DNA from: an uncultured bacterium | Lineage (GTDB): Bacteria; Bacillota_I; Bacilli_A; RF39; UBA660 | DNA length: 44,081 bases | Assembly: GCA_949291455.1 (NCBI GenBank) | Contig: CASEVQ010000006.1 | Span: forward strand, 1-44,081 | Reading direction: 5' to 3' | In this document: piece by piece, positions 5,332 through 29,250 of the stretch | Layout: every line of letters begins with the position of its first letter | How positions within the stretch are numbered: the stretch's first letter is position 1 | Notes under the pieces: generated by a model | The model's database searches: none | Seen by the model: the letters and a program-made list of their open reading frames with translations, nothing else | What the model was told of the DNA's origin: nothing | Made by a program: the position numbers and the translations under genes

Positions 5332-6270
5332 ATGAAAGATAAGCAGTTCAAGAATTTAGATGAACAAGTAGAAATATTTAAGTATAAGGGGTTAATAATA
5401 AATGATGAAAAATACGCTAAGGAAGTGTTACTAAGAGAAAATTATTTTTTCTTAAGTGGATACAGGCATTTATTTATGAATCCAGAAAATCCTAAATTTT
5501 ATTTAGAAGGTACAACTTTTGAAGAACTTTATAGCCTATTTCTTTTTGATAGACAATTTAGGAATATTATATTTAAAAATCTGTTGATAGTTGAAAACAA
5601 TGCAAAATCTATTTTTTCTTATCAGCTTTCTAAGAAATATGGATATAAAGAAAATGATTATTTAAAACCGAGTAATTTTGATATGTCACCAGATAAAAGT
5701 AGGCAAGTAAATGATTTAATTAAAAAGATGAAAAGACAAGTTAGAGTAAATGGATCACAACATACTGCTACAGCTCATTATATAAGTAATTATGGATATA
5801 TTCCTTTATGGGTTTTAGTAAAAGTTTTATCTTTTGGTATTATTAGTGAGTTTTATTCCATATTAAAAATGGATGATAGGGTTTCTATTGCTAAAATTTA
5901 TAATATAAATGTAGAAGATTTAACTAATTATTTATCTTTACTTGCAAATTATAGGAATGTATGTGCACACGAAGATATTCTTTACGAAAATAAAACACAA
6001 AGGGAAATTAATAATACTGTTTATCATGCTTTATTGGGAATAAAAAAAGTAGATAATGAATATGTACAAGGAAAAAATGATTTATTTGCTTTATTAATAA
6101 TATTAAGACAATTACTTAGAAATGAAGATGTAAAAAATTTAATATTAGAAATTGATAGGGCACTTGAAAATTTAAAACTTAATTTGCACACGATTCCTAT
6201 AGAAAAAGTATTGGATAGAATGGGATTTCCTTATAATTGGAAGGAAATTGCTAATATAGAAAAGAGGTAA
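5332..6270 (+). CDS. Abi family (Abi_2, AbiD/AbiF-like HEPN) protein
   Basis: FKNLDEQV, NYFFLSGY, LFLFDRQFR, IPLWVLV..LSFG and the HEPN motif RNVCAH. Confidence 0.88.
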   Translation: MKDKQFKNLDEQVEIFKYKGLIINDEKYAKEVLLRENYFFLSGYRHLFMNPENPKFYLEGTTFEELYSLFLFDRQFRNIIFKNLLIVENNAKSIFSYQLSKKYGYKENDYLKPSNFDMSPDKSRQVNDLIKKMKRQVRVNGSQHTATAHYISNYGYIPLWVLVKVLSFGIISEFYSILKMDDRVSIAKIYNINVEDLTNYLSLLANYRNVCAHEDILYENKTQREINNTVYHALLGIKKVDNEYVQGKNDLFALLIILRQLLRNEDVKNLILEIDRALENLKLNLHTIPIEKVLDRMGFPYNWKEIANIEKR

Positions 6271-6276
6271 TGTTAT

Positions 6277-7392
6277 TTGAAAAATAAAATATTAATTTTT
6301 ATAATTGTTTTTGTAGCATTTATATCTGGTGGTGGAATGATGTATCTTTTTGTAGGAGATCCTTTTACCACAACTAATAATTCGTCAAATGCTAGTACTA
6401 ATTACAATAGCTGTAGTAATTGTATGAGTGGAACAATGGTTGTTAACAATGGTGGTATAACTCAATCTGTTAATAAGGTTTATGATGCTGTTGTAATGGT
6501 AAAAAACTATCAAAAAAACACATTAGCAGGTTCTGGTAGTGGTTTTGTTTATAAAAAGGATGATAAATACGGTTATATAATGACTAACCAACACGTAGTA
6601 GAAGATGCTACTGCAGTAAAAGTAACTTTGGCTAGCGGTGAAACGATTGATGCAGATTTATTAGGTGGAGATGAATATTTAGATATAGCAATTGTAAGAA
6701 TTCCTGTATCGAAAGTTATTTCTGTAGCAACTATCGGAACAACAGAAAATTTAAGTTTAGGTGATACTGTATTTACAATTGGTACTCCTGTTGGAGAGAA
6801 CTATTTTAATTCTGTAACTGGCGGATATATATCAGGATTAGACAGAAAAGTAACTGTTAGTGTTCAAGCAAATTCTGATTGGGTACAAGAAGTAATTCAA
6901 ATTGATGCAGCAATAAATCCTGGAAATAGTGGAGGACCACTTGTTAATTTTAACGGAGAAGTAATTGGAGTAACATCGCTTAAATTAGTAGATTCGACAA
7001 TTGAAGGTATGGGATTTGCTATTAAAATTGAAGATGCAATGAAGCATGTAGAAGATTTAGAAAATGGTAAAAAGATTGAAAGACCATTATTAGGCATAAC
7101 TCACATAAATGCTACTGAAACATATACATTAAGACAATATGGAATATCACTTGATTCTGATATAACATCTGGAATAGTTGTATTATCTGTCGAAGAAGGC
7201 TCAGCTGCTGATAAAGCTGGATTGAAGAAAGGTGATGTAGTAATTGGTTTAAATAATGATGAAGTAACTAATACAGCATATCTAAAGTATTTATTATATA
7301 AATATAGTGTTGGTGATGAAATTAAAATTACTTATATAAGAGATAATGAAACAAAAACAGCAACCGTGACATTGACAGACGTAGCAGATTAG
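6277..7392 (+). CDS. htrA: HtrA/DegP serine protease with PDZ domain
   Basis: GSGSGFVY, TNQHVV, DIAIV, DAAINPGNSGGPL; N-terminal TM; C-terminal PDZ. Confidence 0.95.
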   Translation: MKNKILIFIIVFVAFISGGGMMYLFVGDPFTTTNNSSNASTNYNSCSNCMSGTMVVNNGGITQSVNKVYDAVVMVKNYQKNTLAGSGSGFVYKKDDKYGYIMTNQHVVEDATAVKVTLASGETIDADLLGGDEYLDIAIVRIPVSKVISVATIGTTENLSLGDTVFTIGTPVGENYFNSVTGGYISGLDRKVTVSVQANSDWVQEVIQIDAAINPGNSGGPLVNFNGEVIGVTSLKLVDSTIEGMGFAIKIEDAMKHVEDLENGKKIERPLLGITHINATETYTLRQYGISLDSDITSGIVVLSVEEGSAADKAGLKKGDVVIGLNNDEVTNTAYLKYLLYKYSVGDEIKITYIRDNETKTATVTLTDVAD

Positions 7393-13921: not shown

Positions 13922-14212
13922 TTGAGCAATAATAATTTTAGGGCAACTAAAAAAGTAGTAGTAGATGCTGGGCACGGTGGTAGCGACCCAGGTGCTATTA
14001 ACGGAAATGTGTATGAAAAAGATTTCAATTTAGAAGTTGCTAATTATATTTATAATCGTTTGAAAGAGTTAGGTGTTCCTGTTTATATCACAAGAGACAC
14101 AGATGAAACTCTGGATAGAAATGAAAGAGTAAGTAGAATTTTAAATGCTTTTGGAAATAATAGTGATGTTATCGTGTTATCTAATCACATAAATGCAGGA
14201 GGTGGCGAAGGT
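13922..14212 (+). CDS. N-acetylmuramoyl-L-alanine amidase (Amidase_3), 5' part of interrupted gene
   Basis: VVVDAGHGGSDPGA, EKDFNL, TRDTD, SNHINAGGGEG. Similarity ends exactly at the 14-bp repeat; the ORF then runs 12 foreign codons to a stop at 14251. Confidence 0.93.
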
Positions 14213-14223
14213 CAAAGTGTAAC
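14199..14223 (+). repeat. attL: 14-bp core GAGGTGGCGAAGGT (14199-14212) plus arm CAAAGTGTAAC
   Basis: Core identical to 31527-31540; GTGTAAC is the reverse complement of GTTACAC at 31508-31514. Confidence 0.92.
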
Positions 14224-14276
14224 AAATAAATGTATAACAATTAAAGCCTAAATATAAAAAGAAATGAGGAAATGTT

Positions 14277-23800: not shown

Positions 23801-25396
23801 ATGCAGTATAATATTTTTAGAGTAAAAGATGAAAAAGGGCTTTTAGAAGAAATGAAAATAAAAAATTACATTAAAAGTAATAATGAAAAACAGGTAGATA
23901 ATTATAAATTGTCATTATATTATTGTAAAAACGATAGTTCGAAAATATCATGGCAAAACATATTAAATGAGTTTAATGTTGATATAACAATAGATAAAGA
24001 TAATTTGAAAGGGATATTATTAATATCTTCTGATATGGACTTTTATGCAGTTACATATGGTATGAGCAGTTCATTGGTGCAAAAGTATTGTGATACAGAT
24101 TTTGCTATGAATATCGCTAAACGTGTAGAAGTTTCAAAAATAAAAAGAAAAGCAGCAAAGTTTTTAAATGGAAGTACTAGTAGTTTAGTAAAAACTATGT
24201 CTAATGCAAATATAATTGTTTTGGACAGGGGAGAGTCTGTTGTTAATTTAGAAATTATACCTGATGAGTGTGAAAATTTAGGAAAGTGTATTGTTATTGG
24301 AAAATCCTTAAAATTAAATTTAGATAAAAATATCGATAATATATCTGAAGTTATATCAATAATAAAAAATATTGAGAATAGAGAAGATAAAAGACCGATA
24401 CCTTTATTCGTAAAAGTGACTGATGATGACTTAAAATCTAGAATATGGGAGACATTAAATTCTGAGTTTATGCAAAATATAAAAAACCTGAATTTTTCAT
24501 TGGATGAAATGAATGTTTTGGGGAGTTCAATATATTTTGATGATAATTTTAGGTTAGAGTTAGCATATTTAAATAAAAAAGAAGAAATATCAATTTTAAG
24601 TACTGATGTAGTGAGAAATTTTATTGAAAAAAATGATATAAAAATCGATAAAATTTTAGATTATATAAAAATAAAATATATTTCTGATAGTGGTAATTTT
24701 GTACGTTCTTTAAAAGAAGTTGTAACTTTTGATTTTAGTTATGAGGATACAAATTACGTTGTTTATGATGGTGATATTTACTACTATAATGATGATTTTT
24801 ATCAAAATATTAAAGACGGATTAAGATTGATAGAATTTAAACCATATGATAAAGCGGATGATAAAAGTATTATTTGGTATAAAAACTATTTAAGTGAAAA
24901 TAACCTTGTTGACGTAAAAGATAACAAGTCAAAGAAAGATGAAAATAAAATAACTTATAGAGAAAAAGCAATAAATGAAGTATTAAGTAAAAAATACCAG
25001 TATGATAATTTAGATAGAAATCTTGTTAACATAAATAAAGATTTGATTTATAAAATAGAGATAGCAGATTTAGGTAAAAAGGATGAAATAATTTATGCTG
25101 TAAAAGTAGGTAGCCCTAGAGATTTTTGTTATGCTATAGATCAGTCAAATTTAACGATCGACGCTTTTTTATCTAGAACCTACGATAAAGATGAACTTAT
25201 AGAAGAATATAAAAATGTTAAATATATTGGATTATGGTTATATCTCAAAGGAAAGAAAAAAATTCATGACCAAAACAATAATATCGATGTATCACAATTA
25301 GATTCTATAATGTTTTTAAATAAATTGGTTGACTGGGCTAACAAAGTAGTTTCTGCTAATTATAAACCTATTGTGGTAATTAATTATTATGATTAA
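23801..25396 (+). CDS. DUF6119 / TIGR04141-like sporadically distributed protein
   Basis: AGGAGG RBS before ATG 23801; YAVTYG, DTDFA..IAKR, C-terminal LDR...IEIADL....YAVKVG...QS nuclease-like motif. Family assigned from motif recall. Confidence 0.7.
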   Translation: MQYNIFRVKDEKGLLEEMKIKNYIKSNNEKQVDNYKLSLYYCKNDSSKISWQNILNEFNVDITIDKDNLKGILLISSDMDFYAVTYGMSSSLVQKYCDTDFAMNIAKRVEVSKIKRKAAKFLNGSTSSLVKTMSNANIIVLDRGESVVNLEIIPDECENLGKCIVIGKSLKLNLDKNIDNISEVISIIKNIENREDKRPIPLFVKVTDDDLKSRIWETLNSEFMQNIKNLNFSLDEMNVLGSSIYFDDNFRLELAYLNKKEEISILSTDVVRNFIEKNDIKIDKILDYIKIKYISDSGNFVRSLKEVVTFDFSYEDTNYVVYDGDIYYYNDDFYQNIKDGLRLIEFKPYDKADDKSIIWYKNYLSENNLVDVKDNKSKKDENKITYREKAINEVLSKKYQYDNLDRNLVNINKDLIYKIEIADLGKKDEIIYAVKVGSPRDFCYAIDQSNLTIDAFLSRTYDKDELIEEYKNVKYIGLWLYLKGKKKIHDQNNNIDVSQLDSIMFLNKLVDWANKVVSANYKPIVVINYYD

Positions 25397-25413
25397 TATT
25401 TAATTTAAATTGG

Positions 25414-25437
25414 GAGTACGTTTAGGTACTCTTTTTT
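25414..25437 (+). terminator. Intrinsic terminator
   Basis: GAGTAC-GTTTAG-GTACTC-TTTTTT. Confidence 0.7.
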
Positions 25438-25560
25438 CATATTTCGTACAATTAAACTTTATTTTTATTTGTTGTAAGATATAGATACCTAGGGAAAATA
25501 GTATGTAAAAGTGCACTTTTATAAAGATATATTTTATTTATAATTCTATATAAGGATAAT

Positions 25561-26043
25561 ATGGAAGAATATATAAAACCAATTATACCATTATCAGTAT
25601 TTAGCGATAATAGAATATCATCTTTAGAAAAGTTATTATTAATACACATAATTTCTTTGTGTAATAATAAAGGATATTGTTGGGCAACTAATAGCTATTT
25701 TATGAAAGTTCATGGCTATAGCAAACAAACAATTTCTAAATGTATTAACAATCTCGCCTCTTTTGGTTATATAAAGTTGAAATATGAAAAAGAAAGTACT
25801 AATAATTCAAAGCGTACAATTACACTTGACCAAGTATTAAAAAAAGAAATACAAGATATTAAAAATAATTTGAATACCAGTGTTCAATCTAACTTTAATC
25901 ATTATAATAAAAATAAGATAAATGAAATATATTATAAAGATAAATTAGGTAATGAATATTGGAATGGAAAGTTAATTGAAAAAGAAGAAGCAACTAAACA
26001 AGAAATAGAAGAATTAGAAAATTTATTAAAAGAATATAAGTAA
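25561..26043 (+). CDS. Winged HTH (HTH_36) protein, phage replication-initiator N-terminal-like
   Basis: KLL...ISLCNNKGYCWATNSYF...TISKCINNL...GYI pattern. Confidence 0.75.
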   Translation: MEEYIKPIIPLSVFSDNRISSLEKLLLIHIISLCNNKGYCWATNSYFMKVHGYSKQTISKCINNLASFGYIKLKYEKESTNNSKRTITLDQVLKKEIQDIKNNLNTSVQSNFNHYNKNKINEIYYKDKLGNEYWNGKLIEKEEATKQEIEELENLLKEYK

Positions 26044-26108
26044 AAGAGATTAGGAGGTTTTAAAATAATATGCAAGAATTTATCATAAGATTTTTTAAGA
26101 GGTGAGAT

Positions 26109-26204
26109 ATGTTTAATATTAAAGAAACCTTTAAAAAAGATGATAATTCTACTATTAATGATTTGATAATTGGATATATAATGTGCGTTTTAGTAAAATC
26201 GTAG
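26109..26204 (+). CDS. 31-aa peptide upstream of the recombinase
   Basis: GAGGTG RBS; MFNIKETFKKDDNSTINDLIIGYIMCVLVKS; below the ORF-track cutoff. Confidence 0.4.
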   Translation: MFNIKETFKKDDNSTINDLIIGYIMCVLVKS

Positions 26205-26279
26205 ATTTGTTATACGGCTATATTAATGATAGACTGAATCTAGGCTTTAAATGTTATACAAAAGAAAGGAGAAAAAGCC

Positions 26280-27863
26280 GTGTATAACACTGTGTTACAG
26301 CACCCTAGTTATTATAGAGTAGGATTATATATAAGATTATCTGAATCAGATTCTGATAAAAGTTATGAATCAGAAAGTGAAAGTATTATTAATCAAAGAA
26401 ATTTATTAATGAGCTTTGTAAAACAAAATGAATTTACTTTTGTTGATGAATATATTGATGATGGATTTACCGGTACTAATTTTGATAGACCTGGATTTAA
26501 AAGATTAATTGATGATATAGAAAAAGGTAGAATTAATTGTGTTATAACTAAAGATTTATCTAGATTAGGTAGAAATTATGTAACATGTGGATATTATGTA
26601 GATGAATATTTTCTTTTAAAGAAAGTTAGATATATTGCTGTATTAGATCAGGTGGATACTTTTTTAAATAATGTTGGTAATGAAATGATACCTTTTAAAT
26701 CAGTATTTAATGATATGACTAGTAGGGATAATTCAAAAAAAATTCGTTCTATTTTAAGAAATAAAAAAGAAATAGGGAAATTTATTGGAAGTGAATCTAG
26801 TTTTGGATATATGAGAGATCCAGAAGATAAAGGACATTTATTACCTAATCCAGAAACTGCATTTATTGTGAAAAAAATATTTGAAATGGCAAATAATGGA
26901 ACAAGTGTAAGTGATATAGCAAGTTATCTTAATGATTGTAAATATCCTACACCAAGTCTATACAAGAAAAAAGAGGGTTCTAAACAAAAGGTTAATCCAA
27001 TATGGTCTATTTCATCAGTGAAAAAAATATTAAAAAATCAGATGTATACTGGAGATATGGTCCAAAATGTTCAAACTAAATTATCATATAAATCACCTAA
27101 GAAAGTAACACTTAATAAAGAAGCATGGATAATTGTACCTAATACTCATGAACCTTTAGTTAGTAAAGAAGTATTTTTTAAAGTACAAAATAATGTTAAA
27201 AGAAAACCTAAAACACAGTCTAATAGGGAAAAAAGACTATTTGAAAATCTTATTTACTGCAAAGAATGTGGAAACACTTTAACAGTTACTTACCGAAAGA
27301 AACAAGATTATTGGACTGTTAATTGTAATAGGTATTCGAGAGATCCAAGAAGACATTTATGTTATCCACATTTTATGCCATATGATAAGTTAGAAGAAGC
27401 ATTACTAGATACAATAAAAAATACTTGTAAAAAATATTTAGACAAGTTAGATATTAAGTCATTAGCAAAATTAGTTAATGATAAAAATAGTAAAAAAGAA
27501 AGTAATATGGAAGAAATTAATTATCTAAATAAAAGGATTAAAGAATGTAATTCTAAAATTGATATGTTATATGATGATAAATTTAAAGGTAATATTTCGG
27601 AAGATACTTATAAAAGATTATCTAGAGAAACAGAAATATTATTAAATCAATCTAAAGCAAGGTTGGAAGAATTACAAAGTATAGACAAAAAGAAAATTGA
27701 TTCTGCTAAAGAAATTAAAAAATATGAACAAAAAATTAAAGAATTAATTAATCTTGATAAACCAAGTAGAGAATTATTACAATCCATCATTGATAAAATA
27801 ATTATAAATAAAGATAGAAATATTGAAATCTTTTATAAATTCAGTTTGTTAAATAATATTTGA
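26280..27863 (+). CDS. Large serine recombinase (resolvase + recombinase + Zn ribbon + coiled coil; TnpX/SpoIVCA class)
   Basis: YIRLS catalytic Ser, DDGFTGTNFDRPG, KDLSRLGRN, YTGDMVQ, HEPLVS, CKECG; intact frame; AAAGGAG RBS. Confidence 0.96.
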   Translation: MYNTVLQHPSYYRVGLYIRLSESDSDKSYESESESIINQRNLLMSFVKQNEFTFVDEYIDDGFTGTNFDRPGFKRLIDDIEKGRINCVITKDLSRLGRNYVTCGYYVDEYFLLKKVRYIAVLDQVDTFLNNVGNEMIPFKSVFNDMTSRDNSKKIRSILRNKKEIGKFIGSESSFGYMRDPEDKGHLLPNPETAFIVKKIFEMANNGTSVSDIASYLNDCKYPTPSLYKKKEGSKQKVNPIWSISSVKKILKNQMYTGDMVQNVQTKLSYKSPKKVTLNKEAWIIVPNTHEPLVSKEVFFKVQNNVKRKPKTQSNREKRLFENLIYCKECGNTLTVTYRKKQDYWTVNCNRYSRDPRRHLCYPHFMPYDKLEEALLDTIKNTCKKYLDKLDIKSLAKLVNDKNSKKESNMEEINYLNKRIKECNSKIDMLYDDKFKGNISEDTYKRLSRETEILLNQSKARLEELQSIDKKKIDSAKEIKKYEQKIKELINLDKPSRELLQSIIDKIIINKDRNIEIFYKFSLLNNI

Positions 27864-27869
27864 TTCATA

Positions 27870-28208
27870 GAAGTTAGTTCTATACTAACTTCATACATTT
27901 AAAGGCGAGATAATGAAGTTTAGTTGCTAATTAACTTTGTGGTAGAATGGCACAAAGTTAGTAATATAAAAATTCAATTAACTATTTTTAGTAAATTTTA
28001 AAAAGTTCCCACCGACTTGGTGGGAAGTTTATAGTAAATATTAACTTGTGACCATGTTGGGTACAAGTAATATTTAAAAAAATAATAACTTAAATCTAAT
28101 TTGAAACAAAAATATAAAATTAAATTTTATTATACCTCTATTATAAAACTTATGCACACAATGTGCATAAGTAAAAATATTAACTTCCCGACAGGCTGTC
28201 GAGAAGTA
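27870..28208. repeat. Array of palindromes including five 27-bp AA(C/G)TT-N17-AAGT(T/A) units
   Basis: Units at 27933-27959, 28003-28029, 28043-28069, 28147-28173, 28182-28208, plus hairpin GAAGTTAGT/ACTAACTTC at 27870-27892. Confidence 0.85.
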
Positions 28209-28308
28209 GTTGATTTAATAACATGTACCAAGTTGTTAGTTCTATTATAAATAATTAAATTAAAAATCAGTGATATAATAGTAATTATCAATTTTAGGCG
28301 GTGATAAT

Positions 28309-29151
28309 ATGCAAATAAATATTAAAACTATTAATAGAGCTATTAATCGAAAATTTCATAGGCCATTGAAAGATGGATGTATTTATAATGTTTCAAAATT
28401 AAATAATGAAAGAAGAGCAAAGCATAACGAAACAATCAGTTTATTAAAACAAGCTCACGAAACATTAATAAATGTTGAATATAATCTAAATATATATAAT
28501 TTAGTTGATGCTAATACTTTGTTAAGATCTTCATTTGAATATGTAATGATGGCTATGATGATTCAATTTGATGAGAATGTCTATAATGAATTCACAACAC
28601 TTGGGATTGAACGTGATAAAACTAGAGTTTGTGAAATAATTGATAAATTTAGAACACACATGAATGAAATTTCTGAAACAGCTTTTAAAGATATAAATCG
28701 TAAAGAAAAACTATCTATGTTAACAGAATTATATGATAAATTATGTAATTTTACACATAGTACTTTAATAGTAAGTACTATGATAGAAATTAACAGTAAA
28801 AAAGAAAAAGAAATATTTCAATTACTAATGTATCAAAATTATTATTTTTTAAAAATGCTTTTATTTCTATGTTTGAAATATTTTACGAATGATAATAAGC
28901 ATTATTTAGAATTAAGAAATGTCGGCTTTACTTATTTATTTTTAATGTTTATTATTAATAATAAAATAAAAGATTATAAGTTGGATTTATCAAAGTATAA
29001 TGAATTATTATATTTTGATAAAAATACTAAATATTTCGAAAATGATAAAAAAAATATGGAAAAACTTAGTTTTGAATTAAATGAGCTAAAAGTAGCTATA
29101 GAAGAAAATAGAGATAGTTTTATAAAAGAGTTATTAGAATTTTTAAAATAA
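28309..29151 (+). CDS. Hypothetical helical protein, DUF5677/HEPN-like
   Basis: A..LLRSSFE and LYDKLCNFTH motifs; own extended -10 (TGATATAAT) and RBS upstream. Confidence 0.55.
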   Translation: MQINIKTINRAINRKFHRPLKDGCIYNVSKLNNERRAKHNETISLLKQAHETLINVEYNLNIYNLVDANTLLRSSFEYVMMAMMIQFDENVYNEFTTLGIERDKTRVCEIIDKFRTHMNEISETAFKDINRKEKLSMLTELYDKLCNFTHSTLIVSTMIEINSKKEKEIFQLLMYQNYYFLKMLLFLCLKYFTNDNKHYLELRNVGFTYLFLMFIINNKIKDYKLDLSKYNELLYFDKNTKYFENDKKNMEKLSFELNELKVAIEENRDSFIKELLEFLK

Positions 29152-29202
29152 ATTTATTATGGGTTAGTTTTATATAATAGTTTAAATAATTAAGTAAGTC
29201 AG

Positions 29203-29231
29203 TTGACATAAACTACCGTTTGCGGTATAAT
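29203..29231 (+). promoter_or_regulatory. Consensus sigma-A promoter with overlapping palindromic operator
   Basis: TTGACA-N17-TATAAT; TACCG-TTTG-CGGTA at 29214-29227. Confidence 0.85.
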
Positions 29232-29250
29232 TGTAACAGAGGTGAAAATT

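Follow-up and report, generated by a model that had tools for sequence, protein, structure and literature searches.

Palindromes with differing cores behind a large serine recombinase gene: a putative array of orphan parS-type sites in an integrated element of a gut Bacillota

In the canonical ParB-parS systems (Spo0J/ParB; plasmid types Ia and Ib), a ParB dimer recognises a site with dyad symmetry through its helix-turn-helix, a copy of the site often lies within parB, and specificity shifts with the recognition helix. Chromosomal parS is 16 bp long. Partition sites can also be borrowed: Salmonella genomic island 1 (SGI1) is reported to have a pair of sites that imitate the parS of IncC plasmids and to which the plasmid ParB binds, SGI1 being stabilised and the plasmid destabilised or expelled (PMC10954446). 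The locus described here is an array of five 27-bp palindromes directly behind a large serine recombinase (LSR) gene, within an integrated element of an uncultured bacterium (GTDB Bacillota_I; Bacilli_A; RF39; UBA660). The window, meaning the whole stretch of DNA analysed, covers positions 1 to 44,081 of contig CASEVQ010000006.1 (assembly GCA_949291455.1). The favoured reading, with a probability of roughly 0.55, is that the palindromes are an orphan array of parS-type sites of differing specificities which would act like the SGI1 mimics, either by hitch-hiking on the ParABS system of a helper or by causing incompatibility. Literature searches of main texts found nothing on such arrays or on parS inside parB of integrative and conjugative elements (ICEs) of Bacillota, and the SGI1 paper was their only close match.

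Each unit is built as AACTT-N6-N5-N6-AAGT(T/A), with unit 2 opening with AAGTT, and the region reads as follows, no strand being assigned to these features:

27870..27892: opening hairpin of polarity opposite to the units, GAAGTTAGT-N5-ACTAACTTC, then ATACAT
27933..27959: unit 1, AACTT TGTGGT AGAAT GGCACA AAGTT
28003..28029: unit 2, AAGTT CCCACC GACTT GGTGGG AAGTT
28043..28069: unit 3, AACTT GTGACC ATGTT GGGTAC AAGTA
28070..28146: 77 bp of AT-rich DNA separating unit 3 from unit 4, with a decayed unit-like stretch near 28087
28147..28173: unit 4, AACTT ATGCAC ACAAT GTGCAT AAGTA
28182..28208: unit 5, the last of the array, AACTT CCCGAC AGGCT GTCGAG AAGTA
28216..28231: left half of a unit, AACATGTACCAAGTTG, lacking a right arm to pair with

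Start-to-start distances are 70, 40, 104 and 35 bp. A sequence-only reading of this DNA had described the five units with these positions, geometry and gaps, the inverted-polarity hairpin ahead of them, and a conserved build with variable cores, all of which direct reading bore out. That reading had also listed two degenerate starts; the one behind unit 5 is indeed the left half-unit, while the one at 28087 (AACTT...AATTTG) has arms that are not complementary. The opening hairpin takes the place of the single unit found in related elements. The units are dyad-symmetric, with 4-6 of 6 core pairs in addition to the 5-bp ends (four plus one wobble, six, four plus one wobble, six and five pairs in units 1 to 5), and the consensus is symmetric too.

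The array is a real feature and not a product of chance. The motif AASTT-N17-AAGT, whose comparison with shuffled sequence the sequence-only reading had proposed, is matched at 10 places in the window, 100 shuffles averaging 2.34 +/- 1.91 (maximum 9; none reached 10), and six of the ten are the five units themselves, unit 1 matching on both strands. The genome (1,092,608 bp in 72 contigs, 24.9% GC, 88% complete) has 73 matches, and in 20 the core pairs at 4 or more of its 6 positions. The array accounts for six of these 20; the remaining 14 are scattered singles, one at 27423 in the window and none in clusters, and the cores listed for them are mostly AT-rich, a few not. Constant ends together with GC-rich self-pairing cores thus occur in the 1.09-Mb genome only at 27933-28208, and a genome-wide repeat family was rejected since the units are confined to this locus. 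The array region is much more stably folded than shuffles, with z-scores of -7.4 (+ strand) and -6.9 (- strand).

Several known kinds of palindrome resemble the units in part. As in intrinsic terminators, repetitive extragenic palindromic (REP) sequences and bacterial interspersed mosaic elements (BIME), GC-rich stems stand in AT-rich intergenic DNA downstream of a gene; unlike REP/BIME, the units are not dispersed over the genome, and unlike intrinsic terminators, four of the five have no + strand U-tract behind them. The U-tract rule flags unit 2 alone on the + strand, on which ground the terminator was rejected, and three units on the - strand only. The host does use such terminators, as is seen at 25411-25437, where GAGTAC-GTTTAG-GTACTC with TTTTTT behind it delimits on the left the module formed by the LSR gene and the preceding gene for an HTH_36 protein. 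With integron attC sites the units share imperfect palindromy, conserved ends (AAC...GTT), a variable interior and their position in arrays beside a recombinase gene. Unlike attC sites, they are accompanied only by a serine recombinase and no IntI, are fully stacked over 27 bp without extrahelical bases, and have no genes between them, and attC was rejected because of the type of the sole recombinase and this clustering. Rfam at gathering thresholds finds only rRNA and tRNA in the window and nothing in the array, nor does ARAGORN match the array region, so that an Rfam RNA or a tRNA was discarded. A promoter role was rejected as well, four promoter-like sites being fewer than expected by chance (6.5 in shuffles). 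The earlier opinion that the array is not a CRISPR, attC or canonical terminator pattern, and that no gene of the window accounts for it, stands.

The strongest clue to the nature of the units came from unrelated elements. From 75 distinct units, with ends unconstrained, the consensus AACTT-N5-C-A-N3-T-G-N5-AAGT(T) was obtained, whose ends and centre persist across elements with recombinases sharing 56-60% identity. Viral contigs were scanned with this consensus, leaving the N5 arms free, and 80 loci of 107 stretches were analysed: in 32 loci all five arm positions pair (5/5) and in 16 four do (4/5), the chance of 5/5 being about 0.1%. In 37 of these 48 well-paired loci the palindrome lies within an open reading frame (ORF) of about 300 aa, always in phase 2 and encoding (D)LTSxQVGxKL. 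The protein is a ParB (TIGR00180, 86.6 bits against a cut-off of 58.45; ParB_N), with a ParA and a RepA_N/DUF6017 gene before it and DUF3846 and DUF3801 genes after it, and its family comprises 2418 representative clusters at E<=1e-30. Within the bacterial family to which the window belongs, 35 of 301 genomes have a ParB of this type, and an internal unit was recognised in 11 of 30 parB loci by the scan and in four more by the encoded peptide. In one of these genomes (G379), parAB opens an island beside secA with an adhesin carrying a thioester domain, a sortase, a 2367-aa SNF2 protein, a DUF3991/Toprim primase-like protein and a tyrosine integrase, a gene content that makes the island ICE-like.

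Four contigs have two or three copies of a palindrome with the same core (L119 at 735, 1852 and 2366; L132 at 5 and 311; L137 at 4550 and 4838; L122 at 4108 and 5257), as expected for an element's own centromere. Another, L182, is an unrelated, GC-richer contig of the viral collection with at least 10 units of different cores in about 700 bp of non-coding DNA (5960-6660), which has a pair of large serine recombinase genes on one side and a gene for a UvrD-like helicase on the other.

The core of the palindrome varies together with the protein that encloses it. Bases 9-10 and the three residues before V/I of the helix share a mutual information (MI) of 2.576, compared with a shuffled mean of 1.855 (maximum 2.220; 0 of 5000 as high; 40 distinct pairs), and the presumed recognition helix falls in the stretch that Pfam calls HTH_ParB. 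The pairings are CC with [RK][NS]Q, GC with [ASE]RQ, GA with GRQ, CA with RE[QT], CG with [GK]DT and AC with K[ST]Q. The same pairings reappear at the protein level in a second, independent set of greater diversity, taken from the best 150 representatives at 50% identity (69 with the motif, 49 distinct proteins); here the codon-3 residue and helix residue -2 give an MI of 2.128 versus 0.905 (maximum 1.286; 0 of 3000), and a neighbouring control residue of the helix is flat (0.175 versus 0.163). Close ParB backbones with different cores and different helix residues exist, for example L169 and L109. Furthermore, the ParB of L122 has no internal insert, its helix reads SGRT, and two external palindromes of the GA class (GA|C) lie nearby, matching the code. 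On the strength of this co-variation and of its position, the palindrome is taken to be the parS of this ParB family. The best reading of the pairings would be that the specificity class is set mainly by the two bases beside the conserved C-A...T-G centre.

The units of the LSR elements can be tied to these sites through their arms, a link to the ParB helix that is indirect. Of 63 distinct LSR-element units, 46% have an arm that agrees 5/5 with a half-site from the set of 43 that lie inside parB, a proportion that none of 2000 sets of column-shuffled palindromes reaches (18% +/- 4, maximum 38%). In the window, the 3' arm of unit 1 (TGTGCC/GGCACA type) is identical in 6/6 positions to parB-internal arms of L224, L215 and L156, as are one arm of unit 3 to those of L223 and L220 and one arm of unit 5 to those of L227 and L120. 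Unit 4 agrees in 5/6 with L217, and CTGCAC/GTGCAG is found inside the parB fragment of L241. The matching parB-internal arms come from genomes of the same bacterial family, and the ParB classes of units 1 to 5 would be GC, AC, AC, CA and GA. The description of the cores as mutually unrelated has accordingly to be dropped, since they belong to limited core families that recur in parB genes and track the ParB helix.

A number of observations weigh against this interpretation. Both co-variation tests ignore shared ancestry; the site, 27 bp long with constant pentamers outside and a changing core inside, exceeds the 16 bp of chromosomal parS; units 1 and 3 have only 4/6 core pairs; and the best parB-internal arm for unit 2 agrees in only 4/6 positions in the sets examined. 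Library scans find no ParB_N protein encoded in the element or the window, and the best ParB matches in the rest of the genome, 32-39% identical, lie on another contig (C4). The window sites are therefore orphan, and they do not lie in or beside a parAB operon of the same replicon. A co-residence search, which covered 15 of the 28 genomes with the LSR element, found ICE-type ParB in four, and in none of these four does the internal palindrome equal a resident unit. A missing helper is weak evidence because the genomes are metagenome bins, and a sample of four such genomes is too small to tell avoidance from chance. Three further points, namely a length of 25-27 in the units of distant relatives, a skew of the mismatches on the + strand (G.T/T.G 49 versus A.C/C.A 17) and a U.G pair that outnumbers all others at one position of the single orthologous unit, belong to the same side and recall RNA hairpins.

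These last points are at the heart of a first alternative, in which the units would be single-stranded hairpins of the sense transcript, located in the 3' untranslated region of the recombinase or in the spacer between recombinase and cargo and serving as stabilisers, processing sites or insulators, while arrays would be duplicates kept different to avoid misfolding. Apart from the G.T skew and the variable length, which a hairpin accommodates and a duplex site leaves unexplained, a loop of 3-6 nt would suit it, as would the co-variation within the single orthologous unit, where 88.1% of cells are paired versus 74.2% in shuffles, changes on both sides number 25 versus 9.3, and the covariation score is 0.368 versus 0.157 (0 of 500 shuffles as high; slid controls at most 0.139). 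The unit directly adjoins the stop codon, beyond which several cargo genes begin at 60-70 nt without an obvious promoter. Contig X17 of an RNA library covers 27786-28766, that is the LSR end, the array and the start of the cargo gene ORF280; this is weak support because DNA carry-over is possible and the contigs show neither strand nor ends nor level. In X18 a 151-nt piece runs across units 1-3, and in X16 the array is not covered. On the other hand, the same palindromes are found in coding sequence, within parB of unrelated elements, and vary with the ParB helix, which is unlike an mRNA stabiliser; AACTT, C-A..T-G and AAGTT are symmetric, as a duplex site explains; and the lack of a + strand U-tract in four of five units and of any Rfam match counts against it, as does the exchange of the core between backbones that are 97% identical. 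Hairpins as the primary role are thus judged unlikely, although a dual role as 3' structure of the recombinase mRNA is possible. The multi-hairpin non-coding RNA suggested by the sequence-only reading keeps a low probability, and it is no longer needed to explain the self-complementarity.

According to the favoured reading, the units would be double-stranded dyad sites for the ParB proteins of ICE/plasmid-like elements of Bacillota. They would be self-complementary because a ParB dimer reads two identical half-sites, and would differ among themselves because each answers to its own class of ParB specificity. A conjugative element that is co-resident or incoming would supply the ParB that loads on the units; the excised and possibly replicating island, given its initiator-like HTH_36, would be segregated by the ParABS of the helper; and in any state the additional centromeres would compete with the helper's own, titrating and mis-pairing its partition complex and so causing incompatibility. 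Several specificities would widen the range of elements to be exploited or antagonised, and the element may in this way ride on, or sabotage, the DNA-segregation machinery of several conjugative elements. The array leads into a hot spot of defence genes, and the single unit turns over between near-identical backbones; both fit selection to match or counter locally common partners. Sequence analysis shows the kinship of the sites, their co-variation with the ParB helix and the identity of arms; the binding of ParB, with either hitch-hiking or incompatibility as its outcome, is inferred.

Compared with SGI1, the likeness lies in an integrative element without ParB that would carry sites of the kind read by a helper ParB, and the outcomes proposed are the same. 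SGI1 has two copies that mimic the parS of one plasmid, with ParB binding demonstrated experimentally, whereas here 1-9 units with differing cores are known from sequence. The host is also different, a low-GC gut Bacillota with a large serine recombinase; the presumed helpers are RepA_N-ParA-ParB ICE/plasmid-like elements, and no matching helper was found in the same genomes (15 searched). In comparison with the canonical systems, the predicted use of a dyad site by the helix-turn-helix of a ParB dimer is shared, as are the copy within parB and the shift of specificity with the helix; the window copies differ from canonical parS in being orphan and mutually different instead of repeats of one sequence. 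A bolder and more tentative version, possible but clearly less probable, regards the array as a library of centromere decoys, with one parS mimic per ParB class that would capture the partition machinery of an incomer for inheritance and spread or for its expulsion, and with a readable helix-parS code behind it, in which CC goes with [RK]NQ, GC with [AS]RQ, GA with GRQ, CA with RE[QNT], CG with [GK]DT and AC with K[ST]Q. Out of the four guesses of the sequence-only reading, the library of variable operator-type sites or decoy binding sites came closest.

The distribution of the units was followed in 401 genomes of the order, 264 of which have LSR homologues; 70 loci were examined. In each of the 27 loci where a close HTH_36 homologue is encoded, a unit stands at, overlaps or adjoins the LSR stop codon; 18 of these were detected by a strict scan and nine by inspection, being 2-3 letters or one base in length off. 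Among the other 43 LSR loci the strict scan matches two (L074, with truncated upstream sequence, and L089, by the scan only). Most HTH_36-LSR elements have one unit, followed by the motif RTACATAAAA(N0-4)GATAAACTACTTATA, variable cargo and attR, and arrays of 3-9 units are known in three lineages of them. At 89-90% LSR identity there are arrays with other cores, and at 58-60% arrays or single units. A sister LSR clade (62-64% identical) has neither HTH_36 nor units, and its attR lies 100-140 bp past the stop codon, leaving no cargo region. Three features remain unexplained by the favoured reading: the motif behind the unit, the opening hairpin of opposite polarity in the window's clade and this strict association with HTH_36.

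The motif itself is strongly conserved and non-coding, occupies the first 60-70 nt after the LSR stop directly before the cargo, and is carried by L027, L030, L064-L066, L070 and others. A 10-mer, TAAACTACTT, is common to the motif GATAAACTACTT and the reverse complement of the window attB arm GAAGTAGTTTAC, possibly by chance. A candidate extended -10 box, TGATAAACT, is present in the motif of single-unit elements, with no conserved -35 and variable spacing.

The two genes of the module in front of the array are the following:

25561..26043, + strand: HTH_36 protein, 160 aa, part of the conserved module 25411-27908
26280..27863, + strand: large serine recombinase (Resolvase, Recombinase and Zn_ribbon_recom)

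The HTH_36 protein resembles only the N-terminal, winged-helix DNA-binding part of phage replication initiators (DnaD/O-like; phrog_270, E 6.7e-16), and no origin, helicase or primase was identified in the element. In a further alternative the units would be iterons or operators of this protein and form, with the AT-rich spacer, an origin or control region of the excised circle. The kinship with initiators, the presence of units in all 27 loci with HTH_36 and their absence from the LSR clade without it are in keeping with this proposal, as is the layout of the arrays of types A and B, in which two unit clusters surround an AT-rich stretch of 63-77 bp. Most elements, however, have a single unit, and the co-occurrence may simply reflect clade membership. 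Moreover, most ParB elements have no HTH_36 match (tblastn at E<=1e-5 finds none among the 80 viral loci), and near-identical HTH_36 proteins go with different cores, such as GTGACC and TGTCGC. In L036 and L066, for instance, the LSR 3' ends are 97% identical and the HTH_36 proteins nearly so, and the cores differ; a core swapped between near-identical backbones implies that the element's own proteins do not read it. Reading of the core by HTH_36 was rejected for this reason, and sites for HTH_36 in general appear a shade less likely still than hairpins.

How the units change in time is seen best among close relatives. The module 25411-27908, with HTH_36, LSR and opening hairpin, occupies the same amidase site in four genomes at 86-96% identity, and the DNA from the array to attR is swapped as blocks among them. 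Nineteen more arrays, retrieved through the opening hairpin, have gained or lost units in register (as in L062) and contain the same core families in differing order. The homologue comparison that the sequence-only reading had proposed thus shows units coming and going as blocks behind related recombinases. Changes within units are compensated: CCCACC/GGTGGG of unit 2 becomes TCCACC/GGTGGA in G172, and ATGCAC/GTGCAT of unit 4 becomes CTGCAC/GTGCAG in L052.

The exchange of blocks raises the question of an integron-like platform run by the serine recombinase, with the units as recombination sites for the capture and exchange of cargo cassettes. Breakpoints do lie at or near unit borders, at 28182 in G011, where unit 5 and ORF280 are missing together, and about 14 bp past unit 5 in L058, L060 and L062, where the cargo diverges; the left half-unit after unit 5 and the in-register loss in L062 would also fit. 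However, five elements scanned end to end have no units between cargo genes, for which reason the scars of serial cassette insertion once proposed are unsupported. One and the same cargo can stand behind different units, and one terminal unit in front of different cargo, so that a linkage of cassette and unit was rejected; the real attachment (att) sites in the amidase gene look different; and the conserved flanks on either side of the cargo allow ordinary homologous exchange. Of all the alternatives considered, this one is regarded as the most improbable.

The true junctions could be read directly and show that the array sits in a 17.3-kb insertion within an Amidase_3-LysM gene, which also led to the rejection of the units as attachment sites of the recombinase:

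14199..14212, no strand: attL core, the 14-bp GAGGTGGCGAAGGT common to both junctions, interrupting the Amidase_3 gene (13922-14251)
28309..31504, + strand: variable cargo, with ORF280, HTH-Fic (29242-30036) and a SIR2_2 protein (30140-31504)
31527..31540, no strand: attR core GAGGTGGCGAAGGT, beyond which the amidase-LysM frame goes on

The amidase frame is broken at 14212 and resumed at 31541 (gene pieces 13922-14251 and 31541-32665), and the two ends of the element carry inverted GTGTAAC (left) and GTTACAC (right, element-side arm). The target, GGAGGTGG.GA.GGTGC.GAAGT, is used by several LSR clades, one of them without units. The nearest annotated relatives of the LSR are TndX-type proteins with about 39% identity. 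The element has cargo of the defence type and in gene order encodes TnpV, type I restriction-modification with a PIN protein, a PDC-S11/DUF4268 protein and DUF6119, then HTH_36, the LSR, the array, ORF280, HTH-Fic and the SIR2 protein. ORF280 (28309-29151) belongs to no family in Pfam, NCBIfam, PADLOC or PHROGs; a protein atlas gives only unnamed clusters and weak DUF6988/DUF5677 look-alikes, and the gene stands directly 3' of the array in five of ten type A arrays. Within the window, the region is flanked by the 3' end of a 23S rRNA gene, a 5S rRNA gene and a tRNA-Trp(CCA) gene (1-532; 33029-33102).

The element encodes no relaxase and yet occurs at 95-98% identity in a different genus, which leaves room for the idea that the units mimic an origin of transfer (oriT), or another cis site lying in parB, through which the relaxosome of a helper mobilises the element in trans. 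The match to sites on ICE-like elements would agree with this, and the G.T skew on one strand would fit a transferred strand. Nevertheless, the co-variation, computed against ParB, is with the ParB helix, no conserved nick-like motif follows the units, positions 28-35 of the flank being low in information, and we know of no precedent for arrays of 5-9 transfer origins. Mobilisation sites are considered very unlikely, more so than sites for HTH_36, though ahead of cassette exchange.

In some relatives the cargo contains a palindrome of its own, similar in build to the units. A Bro-N gene, corresponding to c5 in L051, L057 and L058, holds GAAACC-GTTAC-AAATT-GTAAC-GCTTTG (peptide EGNETVTNC[HN]ALKLK), at about +293 to +328 past the LSR stop in L027 and L030, and these two differ by a compensated change (GTTAC/GTAAC versus GTGAC/GTCAC). 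Upstream of the Bro-N gene, between TTGA.. and a TATAAT-like box, stands AGAACAAATGTTTGATA (L027, L030, L051, L064-L066), which resembles a LexA-type operator, GAAC-N4-GTTC. The link to DUF1016/RhuM-type genes mentioned in the sequence-only reading was not confirmed as such, the palindromes being in ParB-family genes with a related one in this Bro-N gene, which may be what was meant there.

Near-identical copies of the LSR-array region (25300-31700) are present in metagenome runs X2-X14, from chicken gut and others, in 13 studies. In many of these runs about 0.6 of the sampled words were present, which agrees with a shared backbone bearing different cargo; the comparison is based on Logan contigs, from which strand, ends and level are not readable. 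Joints in the DNA run X4, with sides of 20-31 letters at 90% likeness, were left out of account.

If the favoured reading is true, parS hijacking, so far described for SGI1 and IncC plasmids, would extend to gut Bacillota and in a multi-specificity form, a centromere would be defined for a very large family of ICE/plasmid-like ParB proteins, and the non-coding DNA of defence islands could itself act against plasmids. The recognition code, if real, would span thousands of ParB clusters with parS inside parB and would predict incompatibility groups from sequence. With five 27-bp sites and a handful of ParB variants, the system is a testable one. Should the decoy version hold, partition incompatibility would be an anti-plasmid defence made of sequence only, free of protein.

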